This document shows, piece after piece, positions 11,917-36,393 of a stretch of 38,093 nucleotides of DNA (position 1 is the first letter of the stretch; every line of letters starts with the position of its first letter). The stretch lies in IMG/VR virus record IMGVR_UViG_3300049201_000004, positions 1-38,093 of that record. One strand, 5' to 3'. Position numbers and translations under genes: made by a program. The notes beneath the pieces are model-generated. The model did no database searches and was not told the DNA's origin. It saw only the letters and a list, made by a program, of their open reading frames with translations. This DNA is from a virus. Lineage: Duplodnaviria; Caudoviricetes.

Positions 11917-12837
11917 TCAGGAAATTCTATAGAAGCGGCCGTCCCGACCCTTGATTGGGGTAGAGGCGGTATCGGTAGGATGAGACTGAGATCCACTGGC
12001 TCCACCATTGGGAGTAGCCTTCGAATCGTTCGCAGCCGTTGTTTGTGACTGAGTCTTCTCAGCCATCAAGCGTTTGTTCGTGATGTCAGCAGTCGGCAGC
12101 GCAACTGCCGGGCTGATCTGTGTTGCCACCGCCTTGTTCTGGTCGGGCAGCGAAGCGGATGCGCCGATTGCTGATCCAGCAGCAGAGGTCACCGGAGTGG
12201 CCGTTGCGTTAGGACTAACAGGAGGAGCTTGCAGGTTTGCGCCTGCTGTGACGTTGGTCTTACCCTCAGCTTCTAGTGCATAGCTGACGATCTTGCCTTC
12301 CATCTTGGCCAGAATCTGCGCCAGTGACAGAGGCTTCGCCCGGTTGCCACCCTCGTAGAACACGTTGGCGTTAGCCGCCGCAGCCTTGGGAAACAACTCA
12401 GCACCGATTGCCTTCGGGTCCTTCTGCAGAGCTTGCAAGAAGTTCGAAGCACCTGTCGGACCCAAGAAGTAACCCATATACGTTTCACCGTAGGAGGGCT
12501 TCCGTCCTAGCAAACGCGTGAGCGTCTTGCTGATGCTATTGATGTACAGACCAGCCACATGACTGGCCTTCACTGGATCGTTGCGATCCTCGCGCGTGTA
12601 CTTGAGCGAGGGATAGAGCTTCATCATGTAGTCCCAGGTCGAACCTGTGAACTGAAGCAGACCTTGAGCACTGGAAGTGCTGGCACTGGCGCTCGTGCGG
12701 AACGTCGACTCGGCACCTGCAAAGGCATACACCAGAGTGGAGTCCGCTCCAGCCTTTGCTGATCCTTCCTTGATGGCAGCACGCACACTGTCGCTGGCCT
12801 TGCCGGTGCGAATGGCAGTCAGCTGCTCCTTACCCAA
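11917..12837 (-). CDS. Virion-associated lytic transglycosylase (SLT); probably the C-terminal part of a frameshifted gene starting at 13256
   Basis: AES (catalytic Glu), AQGLLQF..STW and YMGYFLGPTGA motifs. The TTG start has no clear RBS and the frame is open well upstream. Confidence 0.8.
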   Translation of the reverse strand: MGKEQLTAIRTGKASDSVRAAIKEGSAKAGADSTLVYAFAGAESTFRTSASASTSSAQGLLQFTGSTWDYMMKLYPSLKYTREDRNDPVKASHVAGLYINSISKTLTRLLGRKPSYGETYMGYFLGPTGASNFLQALQKDPKAIGAELFPKAAAANANVFYEGGNRAKPLSLAQILAKMEGKIVSYALEAEGKTNVTAGANLQAPPVSPNATATPVTSAAGSAIGASASLPDQNKAVATQISPAVALPTADITNKRLMAEKTQSQTTAANDSKATPNGGASGSQSHPTDTASTPIKGRDGRFYRIS

Positions 12838-13274: not shown

Positions 13275-15809
13275 TTAGACGACACCCAAGTTGAGGGCAA
13301 AGAAAGTTCCGTCCGAGCTATCGAACGTTGGGATCGAGGACACGCTCATGCTGTTCCCCGAAGTTCCGTTGTTGCCACCACCGCTTTGAGCAGTAGGTGT
13401 TTGAGCACCCGAGCTCGTCTTCGGAGCCTCGACATTGGCAGCACTGACACTCGGACTGCTCGGAGTAGAGTTCGCCACTTGCGTAGACGCTCCCTGATCC
13501 TTCGGTGCATCCGCCGAGTAGATGCCGCTCTTCGCAGCTGCTACGCTCACACCCTTCGGCTGAATGTGCCACGGTTCGTTCGAGATCGGACGTTCCATGC
13601 CGTACTTCTGCAGCAGACCGAGCTTGTCCAGTTCGTTGGCCGTGTTGCTCGGAATGTCGACTGCTAACCCATAGTTGTGCAGACTGGATCCTGGCTTGGC
13701 CGCCATTCCTGGCTTCATCGTCTTGTAGAGCTTCTCCTGATCGGCGATACTGCGGTAGCCCGAGTTGATGTTGATGGTCTTGCCAGTCTTCTCTTTGTAC
13801 TCCTGACCCATAGCCACGAGCTTCGATTGAAGCTGTGGATTCACACCATCCACGTTGACATTGGCGTTCTTCGTGAAGACGTTGCTGTCTTTGATCATGC
13901 CACCGCTTCCGACAGGAGAGTCGCCCGGAAGTTTACCTCCGCTACCGATGGGTGCTCCCATCGCACCAACTGCTTGCGCACCAGAAGATCCAGCGGCTGG
14001 AATGTTCACCTGACTACGGGACGCCATGCGTTGCGTGTCGCCATTGTCGTCGGCGGCCGCACTTGCTGCGCTTGCAGCCTTCTGTGCTCCAGTCTGAATC
14101 GTGACGAACTTCTCCATGCTTGCAGTGTCGGGCTTGCGACCTGCTGCCATGTCTTCCAGTTGCTGCTTGGAGTATCCGTCCAAGTAGCTGCCGTCGGCTT
14201 GAGGACCAGCGGCCAGATACTGCTTCGCAACTCCAGGCTGAAGCGTCTTCAGAGCCTTCTGCGCTTGCATGGCCGCGCCTTGACCAACTGAGTCAGCCTT
14301 GCCACGGAGGTTGCGCGCATACGCGTTGTCGTCGAACTCAGGACTGTTCGGGTTCTCTTCGATCTTGCGCTTCTGGTCCACACCAAGCTTGAGTAGCAGA
14401 GCAGGAGTCAGCAGTGCGAGCAACGGAGGAAGGACCGATGTGACCATGGCTGGGAGCAAGGCTGCAAGACGAGCCAACGCACCTCCAGCAGCACCACCTG
14501 CGGCTCCTTGTGTGAATGACGACGAGTTAGCTGCACCGCCAGCACCTTCAGAAGATGCGCGAGCAACCTTCTTCACGGCGTCCAGCATGCGTGCATTAAA
14601 GCGAGCGTTTTCGGCGGTGTGGTCCTTGAGGGTCTGCGCGATACCCTCTTCCACCTCTAGTTGATCTTCGGTCGAGCGATTGCCCTTCGGCATATCCGGT
14701 ACTGGCAGAGCTTGCGCCACTCCAGCACCTGGACCTCCCCACCGAGCCGTCATGCGCTCGCGATAACGCTGTTCTTCGTTGTCCTCCCGCTCCACGTTAC
14801 CCAGACCGAATCGCAGCGTGGATGGATCACGTCCAGACGCCAGAGCCCGGTTCTGCATGTACTGTTGAAAGCCGGTTCCACCATCGCGCCAGCTCTTGCG
14901 CAGGTTGTTCGCACCGATGGCGCCACGTGCGACAGTACCCAACGACAACTTGCCGACACCCAGACGATCCAGAACACTCAGGCTCTTGTTGCGGATCATC
15001 TCGTTGCGGCGTTTCTTGTTGGCCTGCAATTCCTTGTAAGCGCCGAAGCCTTTGCTCAAGCGCTTCTCGAAAGTGGCAGCGGCCTCTTCGATTTCCTTCT
15101 CGGCACGTCGACGGTCGTCTTCCTTGCGCTTGTCTTCGTCCTTCTTCTGCTTGTCGATCTGCTTCTGACGTTCCTTTTGCTGGTCGTCGAAGATGCGACG
15201 CTGCAAAGCGATGGCTTCTTCGGTGAACTGCTCCTGTGCCGAGAACATCTTCTGCAGGTCTACCGGCAGATCGGTAACCATTCGATCCAGACGACTGAGG
15301 GCCTTGAACGTACCCATACGACCCGTCGTCGTGGCGACATCCTTGCCCGTGAGCTCTTGCAGTTGCTTCTCCACCATCTGAAGCAGCTTCTGTTGCTTTT
15401 CCATCGCCTCCTTTTGCTTCAGAGACATCGGACCATTGGTCTTCTGGTTGGCATTGAACTCACGCAGCTTGGTGAGCTTGCGCAACGCCTCCTGTTGGTA
15501 GCGTTGCGTACTCTTCATAAACTCCAGCTCTTTCTCCGCAGCCTCGGCCACGGTCTTCATGCTGGCGTTACTCTCTTCCAGAGACTTCTTGAGGGCATAG
15601 CGTTCGGCTGTGCCCAGTTGTTTCTCGGACAACATCTTGGTCAGCTTCTCGATCTTCTTCTTGAGAACGCGCTGCTCTTGGTAGAGCGCTCTCTTGAACT
15701 GCTCACTATTGGCAGTGGTCTTGCCAATCAGCGGATCAGCCTCTCCACCATCCCACTTGTTCTTCGGGTCACGGTCGAAGATAGCGGCTTGTGGATTCTT
15801 GGTAGCCAT
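13275..15809 (-). CDS. Tape measure-like protein with C-terminal M15 (VanY-like) peptidase domain
   Basis: Long coiled-coil N-terminal half, a hydrophobic segment, then INSGYRS..Q..LY, AKPGSSLHNYGLAVD and EPWH (M15 Zn-peptidase motifs); follows the tail chaperone. Confidence 0.8.
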   Translation of the reverse strand: MATKNPQAAIFDRDPKNKWDGGEADPLIGKTTANSEQFKRALYQEQRVLKKKIEKLTKMLSEKQLGTAERYALKKSLEESNASMKTVAEAAEKELEFMKSTQRYQQEALRKLTKLREFNANQKTNGPMSLKQKEAMEKQQKLLQMVEKQLQELTGKDVATTTGRMGTFKALSRLDRMVTDLPVDLQKMFSAQEQFTEEAIALQRRIFDDQQKERQKQIDKQKKDEDKRKEDDRRRAEKEIEEAAATFEKRLSKGFGAYKELQANKKRRNEMIRNKSLSVLDRLGVGKLSLGTVARGAIGANNLRKSWRDGGTGFQQYMQNRALASGRDPSTLRFGLGNVEREDNEEQRYRERMTARWGGPGAGVAQALPVPDMPKGNRSTEDQLEVEEGIAQTLKDHTAENARFNARMLDAVKKVARASSEGAGGAANSSSFTQGAAGGAAGGALARLAALLPAMVTSVLPPLLALLTPALLLKLGVDQKRKIEENPNSPEFDDNAYARNLRGKADSVGQGAAMQAQKALKTLQPGVAKQYLAAGPQADGSYLDGYSKQQLEDMAAGRKPDTASMEKFVTIQTGAQKAASAASAAADDNGDTQRMASRSQVNIPAAGSSGAQAVGAMGAPIGSGGKLPGDSPVGSGGMIKDSNVFTKNANVNVDGVNPQLQSKLVAMGQEYKEKTGKTININSGYRSIADQEKLYKTMKPGMAAKPGSSLHNYGLAVDIPSNTANELDKLGLLQKYGMERPISNEPWHIQPKGVSVAAAKSGIYSADAPKDQGASTQVANSTPSSPSVSAANVEAPKTSSGAQTPTAQSGGGNNGTSGNSMSVSSIPTFDSSDGTFFALNLGVV

Positions 15810-17222: not shown

Positions 17223-18044
17223 CTAGAAACTGTAGCTGACGAAGTTCGATGGGAATTGCTCTGGAAGTGCCATTGGCAAGTCCGGATAAAGTGCACCGAC
17301 TGCACTCATGAGTGAAGGCATCTCAGATTCTGCGAACTTGCCGATCTTGATGTTAGTCCGATCGACACTGAACTCAACGCCCATGAGGACGCGTTCACTA
17401 CTTCCGCTACTGAGGTTAACCTGATCAAACCGCATCGGCCAGCAATCCATATAGTCGATGACCATTACTGAGTTCATCGCTACGTCTAGGACTGTGATCT
17501 GGATCGTCTTCTTGAAATCCCTTGGGTAAGAGTAGAGACCGGTATCGGGGTTGTACATCGTCGCTTGCCATGCATTCAGGTAAGCGGTTGCAGTTCCCTC
17601 GCTGTCTTCGTAGAGCTTGAGACCCAAGGTCCCAACGCTACTGTGTTGCGGGAAGTGGACGTTCTTACCTGCGCGGTAGTTCGACACTTGATCGAACTCC
17701 ACAAAGGGCAGAGTAGCCTCTTCCACGTATTCCCAGCCCAGATCATAGGACTGGCCGTTCTTCGGCGAGACAAGCGGCATGATTGCGAACCAGTTGAAGT
17801 TCATCAACGGGTCCGGCCGTGCCTGCATTGCGGATAGGACATCACGTCGGCCGGTACGACCGCTGGCACTACCTCCACTAGCCAATCTGCTTGCGGTGTT
17901 TGCCGCATTGGTCAGGAAGTCACCGGTTCTGCCACCCAAATTGCTGACACTATTGATGAGGCTGGAAAGACCAGCGGAGCCGCCAGTCAATCCAGTTCCT
18001 ATCCGATTCGTCAAGGCCGAGAGTACTTGACTAGGGATCGACAT
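17223..18044 (-). CDS. Tail tube paralogue (tube-baseplate junction, gp48/gp54-like)
   Basis: DPLMNFNW...LP...LYED...WP...VEFSVD pattern parallels the adjacent tube protein (DPLQQYNW...IP...LIET...WP...VTFSYD). Confidence 0.7.
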   Translation of the reverse strand: MSIPSQVLSALTNRIGTGLTGGSAGLSSLINSVSNLGGRTGDFLTNAANTASRLASGGSASGRTGRRDVLSAMQARPDPLMNFNWFAIMPLVSPKNGQSYDLGWEYVEEATLPFVEFDQVSNYRAGKNVHFPQHSSVGTLGLKLYEDSEGTATAYLNAWQATMYNPDTGLYSYPRDFKKTIQITVLDVAMNSVMVIDYMDCWPMRFDQVNLSSGSSERVLMGVEFSVDRTNIKIGKFAESEMPSLMSAVGALYPDLPMALPEQFPSNFVSYSF

Positions 18045-18048
18045 GAGA

Positions 18049-18555
18049 TCAGACGTCGATGCAGTAGTCGTAGCTGAACGTCACGCTGGTCGTCACAACG
18101 CCCGACTGGCTGTTGTCCATGCTCGTGTCGTCCACGGTTTCCGGCCACGCGCCGATCAGCTGGATCGTGCGGATTTCCTGCGGGATGTCGTCGTACAGAA
18201 CCATCTCGATGGTCGTGCCGTAGACAGTCTTGTAGTTGCCGGTGTTGTCGATCCAGTTACGGGCCATGTCGTGCCACGTCATCAACTGCGAGCGGGTGCC
18301 GACATCGCGCGTTTCGATCAGCGTGACGGCCAACGAGTGGCTGTAGTTGCGACGACCAGCGAAGCGCAGTTCCACACCGTGGAGGTTGACGGGAACGCTT
18401 TCGAGCATGGAGCCCGGAATCGAAGTCGTCTGTGCCTTGTAGGTGAAGGAACGGCTGTCGGCCGTGCCGGGCATGTTCGGGATGAAGATGTCCCAGTTGT
18501 ATTGCTGCAAGGGGTCGACGAGCGACTGAACTTGCTGGAGGGAGGTGCGAGCCAT
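18049..18555 (-). CDS. Tail tube protein (T4 gp19-like, 168 aa)
   Basis: LRFAGRR, GAWP and VTFSYDY motifs; size and position downstream of the sheath. Confidence 0.9.
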   Translation of the reverse strand: MARTSLQQVQSLVDPLQQYNWDIFIPNMPGTADSRSFTYKAQTTSIPGSMLESVPVNLHGVELRFAGRRNYSHSLAVTLIETRDVGTRSQLMTWHDMARNWIDNTGNYKTVYGTTIEMVLYDDIPQEIRTIQLIGAWPETVDDTSMDNSQSGVVTTSVTFSYDYCIDV

Positions 18556-30178: not shown

Positions 30179-30310
30179 GCAGACTCCTTGTTGAGAATTC
30201 TCGTTGAGAAATCAGGCAAGCACCTGCTAACCCGACGCATCAAAATACCGTTTGCAGCCAAAAGTGCAAAAAGCCCAAAAGGCGTGTTGTACCCGTTGGA
30301 CATTATTCAC

Positions 30311-30319
30311 GTGTAAATA
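30311..30319 (+). promoter_or_regulatory. Candidate phage promoter motif GTGTAAATA
   Basis: Intergenic; identical copies at 34427-34435 and 36964-36972, each upstream of a plus-strand gene. Confidence 0.55.
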
Positions 30320-30372
30320 GGGTAGTGAATCACTCACAGTCTAACAACCGAACTGTAGCAAGGAACATATAA

Positions 30373-33245: not shown

Positions 33246-33571
33246 TCGACATGAACAAGTTTCAGGACGACTACCTGAAGCAAAGCAGCATGGAGTCCAT
33301 CGCCGATGTACTGGATCGGACATCCCTTATGATGTTTCAGCGCGACTCACTGGACGTGGACAACCTGTTCATCAACCTCGCGATCATCGAGCTGATGGAC
33401 GAGACAGGGAGCTACGACTACAGCGACTTGGCCGTCAAGCTGTTCCTCACCAAGTACATCGGCGTGTGGCGTTCGCGCTTCCGGCGGAAACTCGATAAGA
33501 TCCACGCTTACATGCTGGCTGCCGAAGAGGCCAGAGCCGTCCACAAGGAAAGACAACATGCTGATAGATGA
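33236..33571 (+). CDS. Hypothetical helical protein (111 aa)
   Basis: AGGAGG RBS before ATG 33236. Confidence 0.75.
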   Translation: MDVIDMNKFQDDYLKQSSMESIADVLDRTSLMMFQRDSLDVDNLFINLAIIELMDETGSYDYSDLAVKLFLTKYIGVWRSRFRRKLDKIHAYMLAAEEARAVHKERQHADR

Positions 33572-34040
33572 AAACGGCAAGAGACAGAGCATCATCAGCA
33601 GTTCGCACATCAGTGGCTTTGTTGGCGAGTCGCGCTGGCTCTCCAACTTCTGGGTCGATGAGGATCATCCGATCTACCTATTCGATCTGGAGTTCCCCTC
33701 CGTCGAGAACGGCTATCAGGCATGGAAGTCCGACGATCCTCTGGTTTGGAAGCACTTCACGACCATCAAGCCGTGGGAAGCGCAAAAGCAAGGTCAGGAG
33801 ATCGAACTGCGTGCTAACTGGCAGGAGCTGAGGTACGGAGCAATGATGTTCTGCCGCCTGCAGATGTTCCGAGACAACCCGAAGCAGTGGAAGAAGCTGA
33901 AGCGCACCGGCAACAAGGTCTTGGTGGAAAGCAACAACTGGGGTGACTACTTCTGGGGAGAGGACTGGAAGACAGGCAGAGGCAGGAACGAGCTTGGCAA
34001 GATGACCATGATGATCAGGTCCCTCCCTGATCCCACGTAG
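33558..34040 (+). CDS. NADAR (YbiA-like) family protein
   Basis: WLSNF, FPSVENGYQAWK, R.NW, TGNKVLVE, WGDYFWG and GRNELGK..M.IR motifs. Confidence 0.92.
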   Translation: MLIDENGKRQSIISSSHISGFVGESRWLSNFWVDEDHPIYLFDLEFPSVENGYQAWKSDDPLVWKHFTTIKPWEAQKQGQEIELRANWQELRYGAMMFCRLQMFRDNPKQWKKLKRTGNKVLVESNNWGDYFWGEDWKTGRGRNELGKMTMMIRSLPDPT

Positions 34041-34044
34041 ACAC

Positions 34045-34410
34045 AGGACTCCTCGCCACTCCTATTGACAAACGAATACATAGTATACAGGGGTCTGTAC
34101 TACCATATACATAGGGAGTCCTCTACCTGTGGATGGTGGGGATGTAGGAGGTCTGTGGAGTGGTGGGGACACGGTTGGAGGGTCTACCCGGCCTTCAGGC
34201 ACGATAGCAGTCCCCAACGGAGTCCATTCCACTACGGTTCAGGAGACGTAGTAGAGGGGATCTCAAATATAGGAGTTTTTTCGATGACTCTGTACTACCA
34301 TATATATGGTACAGAACGACTCTCCAGAAAAGAGCAGTTTTCGCAGAAATAAGAGACAAGATTCTGTACTACGAAAGCGGTAGTACAAGGAAGTACAACA
34401 AGGTACACGG
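34045..34410. repeat. Origin-like non-coding region with direct repeats and palindromes
   Basis: TCTGTACTACCATATA at 34094-34109 and 34289-34304; TCTGTACTAC at 34363-34372; palindromes at 34289-34315 and 34365-34387; GTACA at 34383, 34393 and 34403; inverted pair AGGACTCC/GGAGTCCT at 34045/34115. Confidence 0.7.
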
Positions 34411-34426
34411 TTCAGTAGGGGAGAGG

Positions 34427-34435
34427 GTGTAAATA
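34427..34435 (+). promoter_or_regulatory. Candidate promoter motif GTGTAAATA (second copy)
   Basis: 33 nt upstream of ATG 34469. Confidence 0.5.
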
Positions 34436-34468
34436 AGCTACAGGAAGACCAGAGGGTCACAAAGCACA

Positions 34469-35719
34469 ATGAAACTGAAGAAACCACACAACATCATGCT
34501 AGACGGGTCTCGCACGGGGACCAGTTTGAGCCACTTGGCGAATGCCTCTTACGGGAGCTACGGCGGGCAAAGTTCTGTAGATCAGTCTGAGTCCAAGATG
34601 GAACTGAGCGAAGATGAGAGCGCGCAGCTGAAGATAATGATGGACAAAGCCGGGGCCGTGGTGGCTGAGCGGGAGATGCGCTTCAATGTCACCAGGAAGA
34701 AATCGACTATGTGTCTGTCGATGCGCGCCAACGAGAACAACGCCAAGAAGAAGTACCTGAACCTGAGCGGCAATCCACTTACTTTTATCACAGGCAGCAA
34801 TGTGTACGGGAGCCCGAATCCCGTCAAGCAATTGAAGTTCTGCTGGAACAAGTGCCTGGAACGGCTGGAGCGAGATGCCGGGATGAAGGCTCCCAAACGG
34901 ATTCATCGGGAGATCGAGAAGGCGCGGATCCACATCAACAGCTTGGAATGGGCCTGCTACACTGAAGAGATGCGCGATCCTCTGAAGATGCTGAACGAGT
35001 GGCACTCCATGTTCCACCTGACACGCAGAAAGCGCGACGACGGGATGCAAGAGTTCCTGGCCGACATGCTGAACGTGCAGTGGATTGACAGCCAATACAA
35101 GGATTCGTTCCGCCTGAAGATACTCGATGCACAGAGGAGAACAGTGTGCATGATCGGCTTCTACGACAAAGCCACCGAGATGGTGCGGAAGGCCGAAGAG
35201 ATGGGCGAAGATGTGGAAGCCGTCCGGGCCTCCATTCCCGATACGATCAGGAACCGGTTGAGGCTGGACATCCAGCTGACCCACTTGTGGTTCAAGAACA
35301 AGAGGGCTACACGGCTCGACGACCTGATCAAGCTGGTGGGCAATCCCAAGACCTACGACGGCGACTGGGGTGCCATGATACGCGACGAGGTCATGAAGGT
35401 CGTGGACAAGACTCATCTGGTACGCATGTTCCAGTTGAACGGCCGAAAGATTCTGGAAGCCCATGAAGCGGGACTCGAGAGCGTACCGGGGATGCCCCAA
35501 CATATCCCCACCGAGTTGCTGGTTCAGCTGCTCTACGCAAGGGCCACCAAAGACATGGACACGCAACAGATGGCCGACTACCTGAGCGCCAAGCCCAAGG
35601 CTTTGGAACGGGTGCGGGCCACAGTCAGGGAGATCCGACCGCTGAAGGACGCCAAACGCTTCGCCATCGACATGAGTCCGGTGAAGATCGAGCAGGCCGA
35701 GGACGGTGAAACTACTTAA
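34469..35719 (+). CDS. Rolling-circle replication initiator-like protein (inovirus gpII/X, Rep_trans-type; 416 aa)
   Basis: LNLSGNPLTFITGSNVYGS resembles the GNP.KF.QGHN.FG motif of gpII/X (Phage_CRI) proteins; FYDKATEM matches the catalytic Y-x-K-x-x-E; RLRLDIQL is in the position of the R-x-E strand. Confidence 0.65.
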   Translation: MKLKKPHNIMLDGSRTGTSLSHLANASYGSYGGQSSVDQSESKMELSEDESAQLKIMMDKAGAVVAEREMRFNVTRKKSTMCLSMRANENNAKKKYLNLSGNPLTFITGSNVYGSPNPVKQLKFCWNKCLERLERDAGMKAPKRIHREIEKARIHINSLEWACYTEEMRDPLKMLNEWHSMFHLTRRKRDDGMQEFLADMLNVQWIDSQYKDSFRLKILDAQRRTVCMIGFYDKATEMVRKAEEMGEDVEAVRASIPDTIRNRLRLDIQLTHLWFKNKRATRLDDLIKLVGNPKTYDGDWGAMIRDEVMKVVDKTHLVRMFQLNGRKILEAHEAGLESVPGMPQHIPTELLVQLLYARATKDMDTQQMADYLSAKPKALERVRATVREIRPLKDAKRFAIDMSPVKIEQAEDGETT

Positions 35720-35737
35720 CCGAAAGGACCACGACAT

Positions 35738-36205
35738 ATGGACAATGAAAAGAAAACACTGCCAGCCCAACCAGTGACGGATGATCGCGACTTCAGGACC
35801 GCTGATGGCCCGGACATTCGTGACCACAAGATCTGGGTTTGGTATTCGGATGGCCAGATCCCCTGCTGGCGTCCCGCTACCTTGGGTCAGTTGACGGATC
35901 AGTTCCGCGACAGTCCCGATTGGGTCGAGGGTCAGTACATGATTCGACTGGACGAACCGAAGGACGTGTGGCAATCGCCCTATCCGCAGACAGGCCTGAG
36001 CAGCCCGGTCAAAAGCCGGAGCTCCAAGATCGGCTATATGTGCGCGGTCGACTTCACATACCATCTGGAGCAGGACGTGAAGCCCCTCACGATCTATCGC
36101 ACGGAGCAAGACTTGAAAGACAAGCGGGCGTGCGTTGAAGAGTGCGGAGCCGTCGAGGTGGAGATCAGTGTCAAGAAGGTGCTGATCGAAGGACACGGCA
36201 CATGA
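35738..36205 (+). CDS. Hypothetical protein (155 aa)
   Basis: AAAGGA RBS; typical codon usage. Confidence 0.75.
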   Translation: MDNEKKTLPAQPVTDDRDFRTADGPDIRDHKIWVWYSDGQIPCWRPATLGQLTDQFRDSPDWVEGQYMIRLDEPKDVWQSPYPQTGLSSPVKSRSSKIGYMCAVDFTYHLEQDVKPLTIYRTEQDLKDKRACVEECGAVEVEISVKKVLIEGHGT

Positions 36206-36393
36206 AGACGGCGCGGCAGCAACGTATCGATCTGCTGCGCCAACGTCAACCACTTGCTGAACTCGAACGCAAGTGGAACAAGGTGAAGGACAGTCGGCAC
36301 GCGCGACACTACTGGACAGTCGAATGGCTGGACTTGGCAAGTGCGCGTGCCGAAGCCCTTCGCTTCAATATCGATGAAGGAGACACGACATGA
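36202..36393 (+). CDS. Small basic hypothetical protein (63 aa)
   Basis: ATGA overlaps at both ends; AAGGA RBS (MKTARQQ...). Confidence 0.7.
   Translation: MKTARQQRIDLLRQRQPLAELERKWNKVKDSRHARHYWTVEWLDLASARAEALRFNIDEGDTT

Follow-up and report, generated by a model that had tools for sequence, protein, structure and literature searches.

We propose, with a probability of roughly 0.7, that a predicted nickase of filamentous-phage type and the non-coding spacer in front of it, found in a large soil phage, form an origin-plus-initiator cassette that has been exchanged with an unrelated helicase-type cassette in sister phages. The proposal rests on sequence comparison and structure modelling: two unrelated, fast-diverging proteins of the DNA-opening type occupy equivalent places behind spacers of their own and do not co-occur, and they are most simply read as cassettes that are swapped and serve one function, initiation at an adjacent origin. 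The initial annotation of this DNA had offered a domesticated nickase plus origin as one possibility, and this option is favoured by the single nickase copy per genome, its location at the strand switch and its exclusion of an SF2 helicase that bears its own origin-like spacer.

The predicted nickase gene and its family

The window, meaning the whole stretch of 38,093 nt that was analysed, is a 38-kb record representing a virus genome that is 15% complete. Profile matches identify tail, baseplate, sheath and capsid genes across positions 1-30178, all on the (-) strand, and the major capsid protein shares 52-54% identity with its BcepSauron, BcepSaruman and phiRSL1 counterparts, which places the window phage as a large myovirus of the phiRSL1/BcepSauron group; related genomes measure ~190-250 kb. 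Past the strand switch (Table 1), (+) genes are followed by a 428-bp gap and then by the ORF in question, which carries the YDKATEM and RLRLD motifs ascribed to it in the initial annotation. The next gene begins 18 bp past its stop, in line with the earlier remark that this gene abuts the nickase with no right-hand element end, and no element ends were seen. The GC3 of the nickase gene (0.77) is like that of its neighbours. A chimeric assembly at the locus is unlikely, because contigs from four other runs bridge the NADAR-gap, gap-ORF and ORF-next gene junctions with zero substitutions, and no joint skipping the nickase is listed among these overlapping contigs.

Table 1. Positions of the features at and around the nickase locus (window coordinates)
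Feature	Position	Strand	Remarks
Strand switch	30179..30372	.	(-) virion operon to (+) cluster with nickase; 3.7 kb from spacer
Non-coding spacer of 428 bp, candidate origin	34041..34468	.	GC 0.48 vs window 0.565
16-bp direct repeat copy 1, candidate Rep-binding iteron	34094..34109	+	
16-bp direct repeat copy 2	34289..34304	+	
Perfect 16-bp palindrome overlapping repeat copy 2	34296..34311	.	1 of 2 this long in window
10-bp partial third repeat copy; hairpin with 8-bp stem and 7-nt loop, candidate nick hairpin	34363..34387	.	
GTGTAAATA, promoter-like clade motif	34427..34435	+	~40 bp 5' of nickase start codon
Gene for gpII/Rep_trans-fold protein (416 aa), predicted Tyr nickase / replication initiator	34469..35719	+	Profiles, AF2 model, hhalign
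Asp12 (MLDG), predicted first metal ligand, cf. gpII MIDW	34502..34504	+	D in 78/83, gap in 4
Glu160, paired with Asp of canonical RxD	34946..34948	+	E in 43/83; A/T/S in 40/83
Tyr232-Asp-Lys234, predicted nucleophile and catalytic Lys	35162..35170	+	Y, K in 83/83; aligned to YxK
Arg265-x-Asp267, paired with canonical RxE	35261..35269	+	R in 83/83; D in 73, E in 10

Several other features of the window deserve mention. A NADAR-domain gene (33558-34040, E 3e-15) sits directly 5' of the spacer, and its homologue in the related genome G004 is distant from the nickase there. Automated gene calling chose a 613-aa antisense frame (34499-36340, (-)) that covers the nickase and the next gene and is probably a codon-bias shadow. 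In the tail region, an 844-aa protein with a VanY-like peptidase domain (13275-15809, (-)) is encoded two genes from an SLT transglycosylase (11917-12837, (-)), and two tail-tube paralogues lie at 17223-18555.

The gpII/Rep_trans fold claimed for the protein at the outset emerges from profile, hhalign and AF2/Foldseek comparisons alike. Phage_CRI (PF05144) matches it with an E of 6e-4 at 20.1 bits, below the Pfam gathering cut-off of 21.7, a value that the relative in G001 exceeds, neighbours included in the frame; the Phage_CRI-type match covers residues 59-291, and 58 of 83 relatives match Phage_CRI at E<=0.01. The match to phrog_702 reaches an E of 7e-6, and the ESM Atlas also supports the gpII-like assignment. 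When the family was aligned by hhalign to six canonical gpII-like proteins, the probability was 98.2 (E 3.7e-14, 177 columns). The AlphaFold (AF2) model has a pLDDT of 90.7; its four Foldseek matches in the PDB at E<=0.001 are all to RepSTK1 (4cij; best E 9e-5, prob 1.00), with modest TM-scores of 0.24-0.26 by query. By VIA-align, RepDE (Z 8.4) and RepSTK1 (Z 8.3) are tied with TBP (Z 8.6), and the superpositions on Rep structures give an rmsd of 4.6-6.4 over 216-233 residues. Foldseek and VIA-align thus both place the TBP-like beta-sheet catalytic fold of Rep_trans in the model. G2P_X_C found no match in the window protein, a PDB sequence search with the 83-row profile returned nothing below E 0.18, tblastn with the window protein, P0004 and P0093 gave zero matches in 50,697 phage records, and peptide-pattern scans built from the window protein or from a 4-row alignment recovered no relatives.

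What remains of the active site? In RepD, Y191 is the nucleophile, K193 is critical, and D46, D142 and E214 bind the metal (PMC4797284); the Rep_trans motifs (N', I, II, III YxKxxE and IV) are listed in PMC5714925. We compared these with an 83-row alignment made of the query, P0004 and 81 of the 87 profile-search clusters, six short fragments being excluded. Motif III is present, the Glu of YxKxxE (E237) being E in 66 rows and Q in 13. The hhalign pairings (SLEW with RIDI, YDK with YGK, RLRLD with KLRLE) bear out the swap of acidic residues that had been suspected, SLEWA standing for R-x-D and RLD for R-x-E. The acidic sites D12-E160-D267 read D-E-D where the canonical order of motifs N' (D), I (RxD) and IV (RxE) is D-D-E; E160 lacks the Arg and is absent in 40 of the 83 rows, and the equivalence of Asp12, which lies outside the local hhalign span, rests on motif likeness. 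Motif II (T/SxY/ExG) has no counterpart in the hhalign-aligned columns. Since these strict motif tests fail, the protein is best regarded as a divergent subfamily of gpII/Rep_trans and not as a regular member, as the initial annotation had suggested. With Tyr and Lys conserved and three acids in the RepD order, the nicking chemistry is probably kept, using a D-E-D site in the window protein. The altered acid sites, with the middle acid gone in 40 rows, and the TBP tie for the top structural score would also suit a non-catalytic origin-binding or regulatory protein whose TBP-like saddle binds repeats only, for example its own operator. Against this, Y232, K234 and R265 are invariant at an overall identity of ~20-30%, and D12 and D/E267 are kept; we consider a protein that only binds very unlikely.

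The relatives sit in large phages. Besides the 87 family clusters from the profile search, pattern scans yielded 81 loci (4+50+27), of which 12 belong to the family (three being one sequence), nine are ordinary gpII-like and one is marginal; the remaining loci were unrelated and were dropped. Further family loci were drawn from clade genomes. Of the 27 GTDB pattern matches, the one in the family is a gene truncated where a 53-kb MAG contig ends. The nameable neighbours are large-phage genes (an SbcD-like nuclease, a RuvC-like resolvase, the capsid-linked phrog_20988), and around both the window gene and its relatives the setting is that of a large myovirus; it does not resemble a plasmid, a satellite or a small ssDNA phage, with their genes for morphogenesis or mobility. 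The fold is common to the initiators of such small elements, and one could imagine a weapon that nicks the origins of satellites, plasmids or filamentous phages, the anti-satellite option of the initial annotation. This option gained no support and is highly improbable: no defence-type neighbours recur, and a weapon would need neither a repeat spacer of its own, nor a place at the strand switch, nor the exclusion of a helicase.

The cultured carriers are five Rhizobium phages, four of which (RHph_N28_1, N42, I42 and N46) are identical across the stretch searched. The nickase of the fifth, RHEph12 protein QXV74160, occupies the same site and is 35% identical to the RHph_N28_1 allele EVB87_184, with flanking neighbours mostly at 77-93%, and the DNA match between the two phages stops ~50 bp into the spacer and restarts past the gene, which reads as a swap in place. 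The top BFVD match to the nickase has 468 aa, the length of the N28_1 protein, and is presumably that protein. The window and G004 have capsid proteins that are 79% and nickases that are 28% identical. G018 encodes a very divergent member (144041-145150) directly 5' of a ribonucleotide-reductase-like gene, without GTAAATA and far from the switch; this copy may be mobile or may have been relocated. In G002 (L009 8219-9109, (-)) and G025 (141427-142131), the genes coupled to the nickase on its 3' side have N-terminal stretches of 67 aa that are 37% identical and that we take to be GIY-YIG-like in look; neither Pfam nor PHROG gave a match for these genes.

The upstream spacer and its place in the genome

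The spacer had been described as the longest non-coding stretch of the window, and it is indeed the longest gap between curated genes, the next measuring 236 bp. Its predicted single-strand folding has z-scores of -3.1 on the (+) and -2.6 on the (-) strand, beating 100/100 and 98/100 shuffles, respectively. We tested 9 other gaps and 89 windows of equal size, and none has a repeat as long as the 16 bp of this spacer. Together with the palindrome and the hairpin, the direct repeats substantiate the origin-like region that had been postulated beside the gene. The gene was also said to carry a motif of the phage's own: GTGTAAATA occurs upstream of the nickase and at 30311 and 36964, three occurrences in the window against 0.02 expected. 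Since its GTAAATA core is found in 35 copies in phiRSL1, we read it as a clade-wide promoter-like motif that is not specific to the origin.

How general is this arrangement? The gaps upstream of family members are mostly 240-470 bp long and rank 4th-23rd by length within whole carrier genomes. When all gaps of at least 180 bp were compared, the nickase gap held the longest exact repeat (14-34 bp) in 5 of 10 carriers; in G002 it was equalled by one other gap, and in G007, RHEph12, G018 and G010 no repeat in the nickase gap was outstanding. A hairpin with a repeat or palindrome beside the rep gene, as in rolling-circle double-strand origins, is present in the window and clear in 5 of 10 carriers. 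Concerning conservation of the upstream repeats, which the initial annotation had raised, the presence of the longest repeat in the nickase gap therefore holds for half of the carriers, but the repeats themselves are genome-specific. The upstream regions of the family share no word beyond GTAAATA. We rejected AAACGAAT as a conserved nick site: 5 of 12 upstream regions contain it, yet across whole genomes it is not tied to the gene, lying close to it in just 2 out of 10. The nickase spacers of G007 (142907-143148) and L014 (4255-4572) share a 17-bp word just 5' of GTAAATA, a hint at where nickases of this subgroup might bind or cut. In L058 (1-416), a 38-bp unit is repeated in tandem ~3.5 times upstream of a family member, and a RuvC-like resolvase follows.

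By our own gene calls, the spacer lies 0.2-3.2 kb from the best strand-switch point in all six near-complete carriers, with 76-96% of coding sequence facing away from that point, and the helicase spacer of RSL1 lies 0.8 kb from its own. In G007 and G005 the distance from the optimum is 24 and 14 kb, on flat plateaus, and in G018 (72% complete) the nickase is far from the strand switch. Outward-facing genes fit co-orientation with replication but fall short of proof of an origin. At four-fold sites, the skew has a two-way term in G004, G007, RSL1 and G005; a one-way term is non-zero in G004, G025 and G001, with a sign that is inconsistent relative to the gene, and also in the nickase-less G006. 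GC-skew minima in or beside the G001 and G002 spacers were discarded as an origin sign: they coincide with the transcription switch and are absent in RHph_N28_1 and RSL1.

Genes that point outward on both sides, as under two-way replication, and the two-way skew term that G004 and G007 clearly share with helicase phages are what one would also expect of a site-specific nickase that acts at a later step (a switch to concatemers, genome-end processing or a nick for late transcription), with initiation by other means. The position of the gene behind the clade GTAAATA motif and the six genomes with neither gene (see below) would agree with such a role. We nevertheless judge it quite unlikely, as it leaves unexplained why the nickase excludes an SF2 helicase with an origin-like spacer of its own.

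Mutual exclusion with an SF2 helicase

In phiRSL1, the nickase is absent even by unfiltered search, and ORF295, an SF2 helicase, lies beside a repeat-bearing divergent gap. All-against-all comparison found a homologue of ORF295 only in the nickase-less G005. ORF295 belongs to phrog_2467 and resembles YonV-type helicases; full-length homologues of it, 25-29% identical, are encoded by Sauron, Saruman, BCSR5, Motura and the PhiXhv/Ep phages. Searching 54 records for phrog_2467 gave matches in 19, and the nickase was found in none of these 19. Not one of the 10 nickase carriers matched phrog_2467, a count that stayed at zero with a 17-row alignment and with an unfiltered search. We then considered 21 near-complete genomes, made up of 9 from IMG/VR (>=90%) and 12 cultured phages, Sen-NF and Rctr197k being excluded as short or partial: six carry the nickase, nine the helicase, none both and six neither, with most absence calls coming from filtered search. 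The Fisher p for exclusion, uncorrected for kinship, is 0.017 across the 21 genomes and 0.005, likewise uncorrected, after dropping two Rhizobium phages and five distant cultured phages with neither gene. GCGNAGC-type motifs lie 5' of 13/17 helicases versus 1/18 nickases, a comparison for which the motif set was picked post hoc and GC was uncontrolled. GCGAAGC forms a stable mini-hairpin and occurs at some origins.

In a quick capsid tree, the two types alternate inside well-supported sister groups (G025/RSL1, support 100; G010/G013, 100; window+G004/G005/G006, 99), so that several switches between nickase and helicase are needed. The nickase tree agrees with the capsid tree on window+G004, G001+G025 and G018+N28 and conflicts in one case, G007. 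Could the nickase be a selfish homing-type cassette instead of an initiator, cutting the helicase-type allele in mixed infections and replacing it by recombination? The patchy distribution, the mixed sister groups, the replacement in place and the fast divergence all lend themselves to this idea, and homing would likewise yield mutual exclusion. We think it unlikely, because genome-specific repeats of its own sit upstream of the nickase, the nickase tree mostly tracks the capsid tree, the gene is single-copy, and loss of the helicase would still demand a replacement function. No empty cognate site, element ends or extra copies were seen, the gene-less relatives being too diverged for the site to be aligned.

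And what about the genomes featuring neither gene? They include G006, which is close to the window phage and 99% complete. No third initiator was found in G006, Aura or GR11A; for Lu11, Y3 and PaBG, the absence of both genes comes from filtered search only. G006 contains a divergent non-coding stretch of ~550 bp at ~199740-200290 (L311/L312). Right at its strand switch, Aura encodes a 506-aa orphan (L361 15890-17410) that stands head-to-head with a DNA helicase of phrog_1967; the orphan has no match to the nickase family and is a candidate for a third initiator. BcepSauron carries two phrog_2467 genes (L326, 109.9-111.6 kb; L329, 234.0-235.8 kb), each after a spacer with GCGNAGC-type motifs, and possibly has two origins. 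In Serratia, Erwinia and Proteus phages of 162-176 kb (4S, Cronus, PM2), hypothetical proteins show weak similarity to the C-terminal part of ORF295, and phrog_2467 may mark unrecognised origin helicases in these phages as well.

Proposed mechanism and comparison with known systems

If the nickase and its spacer form an origin-plus-initiator cassette, family knowledge (PMC4797284, PMC5714925) suggests how it would work: the nickase would bind the repeats of its own spacer, Tyr232 and a divalent metal would nick one strand within the hairpin, and the protein would remain on the 5' end and leave a 3'-OH. The phage replisome could extend this 3' end by strand displacement with lagging-strand synthesis, the products being concatemers or feeding into recombination-dependent forks. 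Spacer and protein would be expected to evolve in step and to be exchanged together, and this would account for the rapid divergence as well as for repeats that are private to each genome. By analogy, the phrog_2467 helicase would be the initiator of the other type. We lean, by a slim balance, towards a broader view in which the main strand switch of phiRSL1-like jumbo phages holds a modular slot for the origin, and in which the initiation chemistry of this slot has been swapped repeatedly, between an SF2 helicase with GCGAAGC-type hairpins and a filamentous-phage-type Tyr nickase with private iterons, the latter copying 190-250-kb genomes from a protein-linked nick.

The openly accessible literature that we searched contains no report of nickase or helicase initiators, or of the start of replication, in phiRSL1-like jumbo phages. 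The main text of a jumbo-phage review (PMC7824862) has no use of 'rolling circle', 'UL9', 'RSL1' or 'nick', and its supplementary annotation may list these genes. The clade-wide mutual exclusion of a nickase and a YonV-like SF2 helicase appears to be new, and it names two candidate initiators and origins for phages in which these genes are now annotated as 'hypothetical' or 'helicase'. If our reading is true, Rep_trans/gpII nickases reach from small replicons to tailed phages of ~200-250 kb, and the clade offers a natural case of an initiator replaced by an unrelated fold. Cultured material is at hand in RHph_N28_1 and RHEph12, close relatives with two nickase alleles, and in phiRSL1 with the helicase. 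Divergent nickase-origin pairs could also serve as orthogonal nicking tools.

Finally, we would place the nickase among known systems. With the inovirus gene II protein (Phage_CRI, phrog_702) it shares the GNP..F..G.N..G, YxKxxE and RxRx(D/E) motifs, the N-terminal Asp and the predicted fold; it differs in having SLE for RxD and RxD for RxE, in scoring below the Pfam cut-off and in lacking G2P_X_C, and its replicon is a tailed dsDNA phage of ~190-250 kb, whereas gpII serves a small ssDNA circle. For tailed dsDNA phages, the A protein of P2 and 186 sets a precedent: a Tyr nickase initiates replication there, and its origin is adjacent. That protein has an HUH fold, acts in temperate genomes of ~30 kb and has its origin within the gene, whereas the window nickase is predicted to adopt a Rep_trans fold, belongs to a far larger genome and has its spacer upstream. 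RepSTK1 and RepD of the pT181-family plasmids (Rep_trans, PF02486) are the best solved-structure matches (4cij, 4cwc): as in RepD, the Tyr lies on a strand with Lys at +2, and three acids occur in the order of D46/D142/E214 (PMC4797284), but identity is 9-12%, the acids read D-E-D and not D-D-E, motifs I (RxD) and II are not matched, and the C-terminal helical part differs. The ORF295-type helicase of phiRSL1 offers a further parallel: although it is unrelated in fold, follows a GCGNAGC-rich spacer and never occurs together with the nickase, it takes the equivalent place behind an origin-like spacer, diverges equally fast and comes with the same GTAAATA motif.
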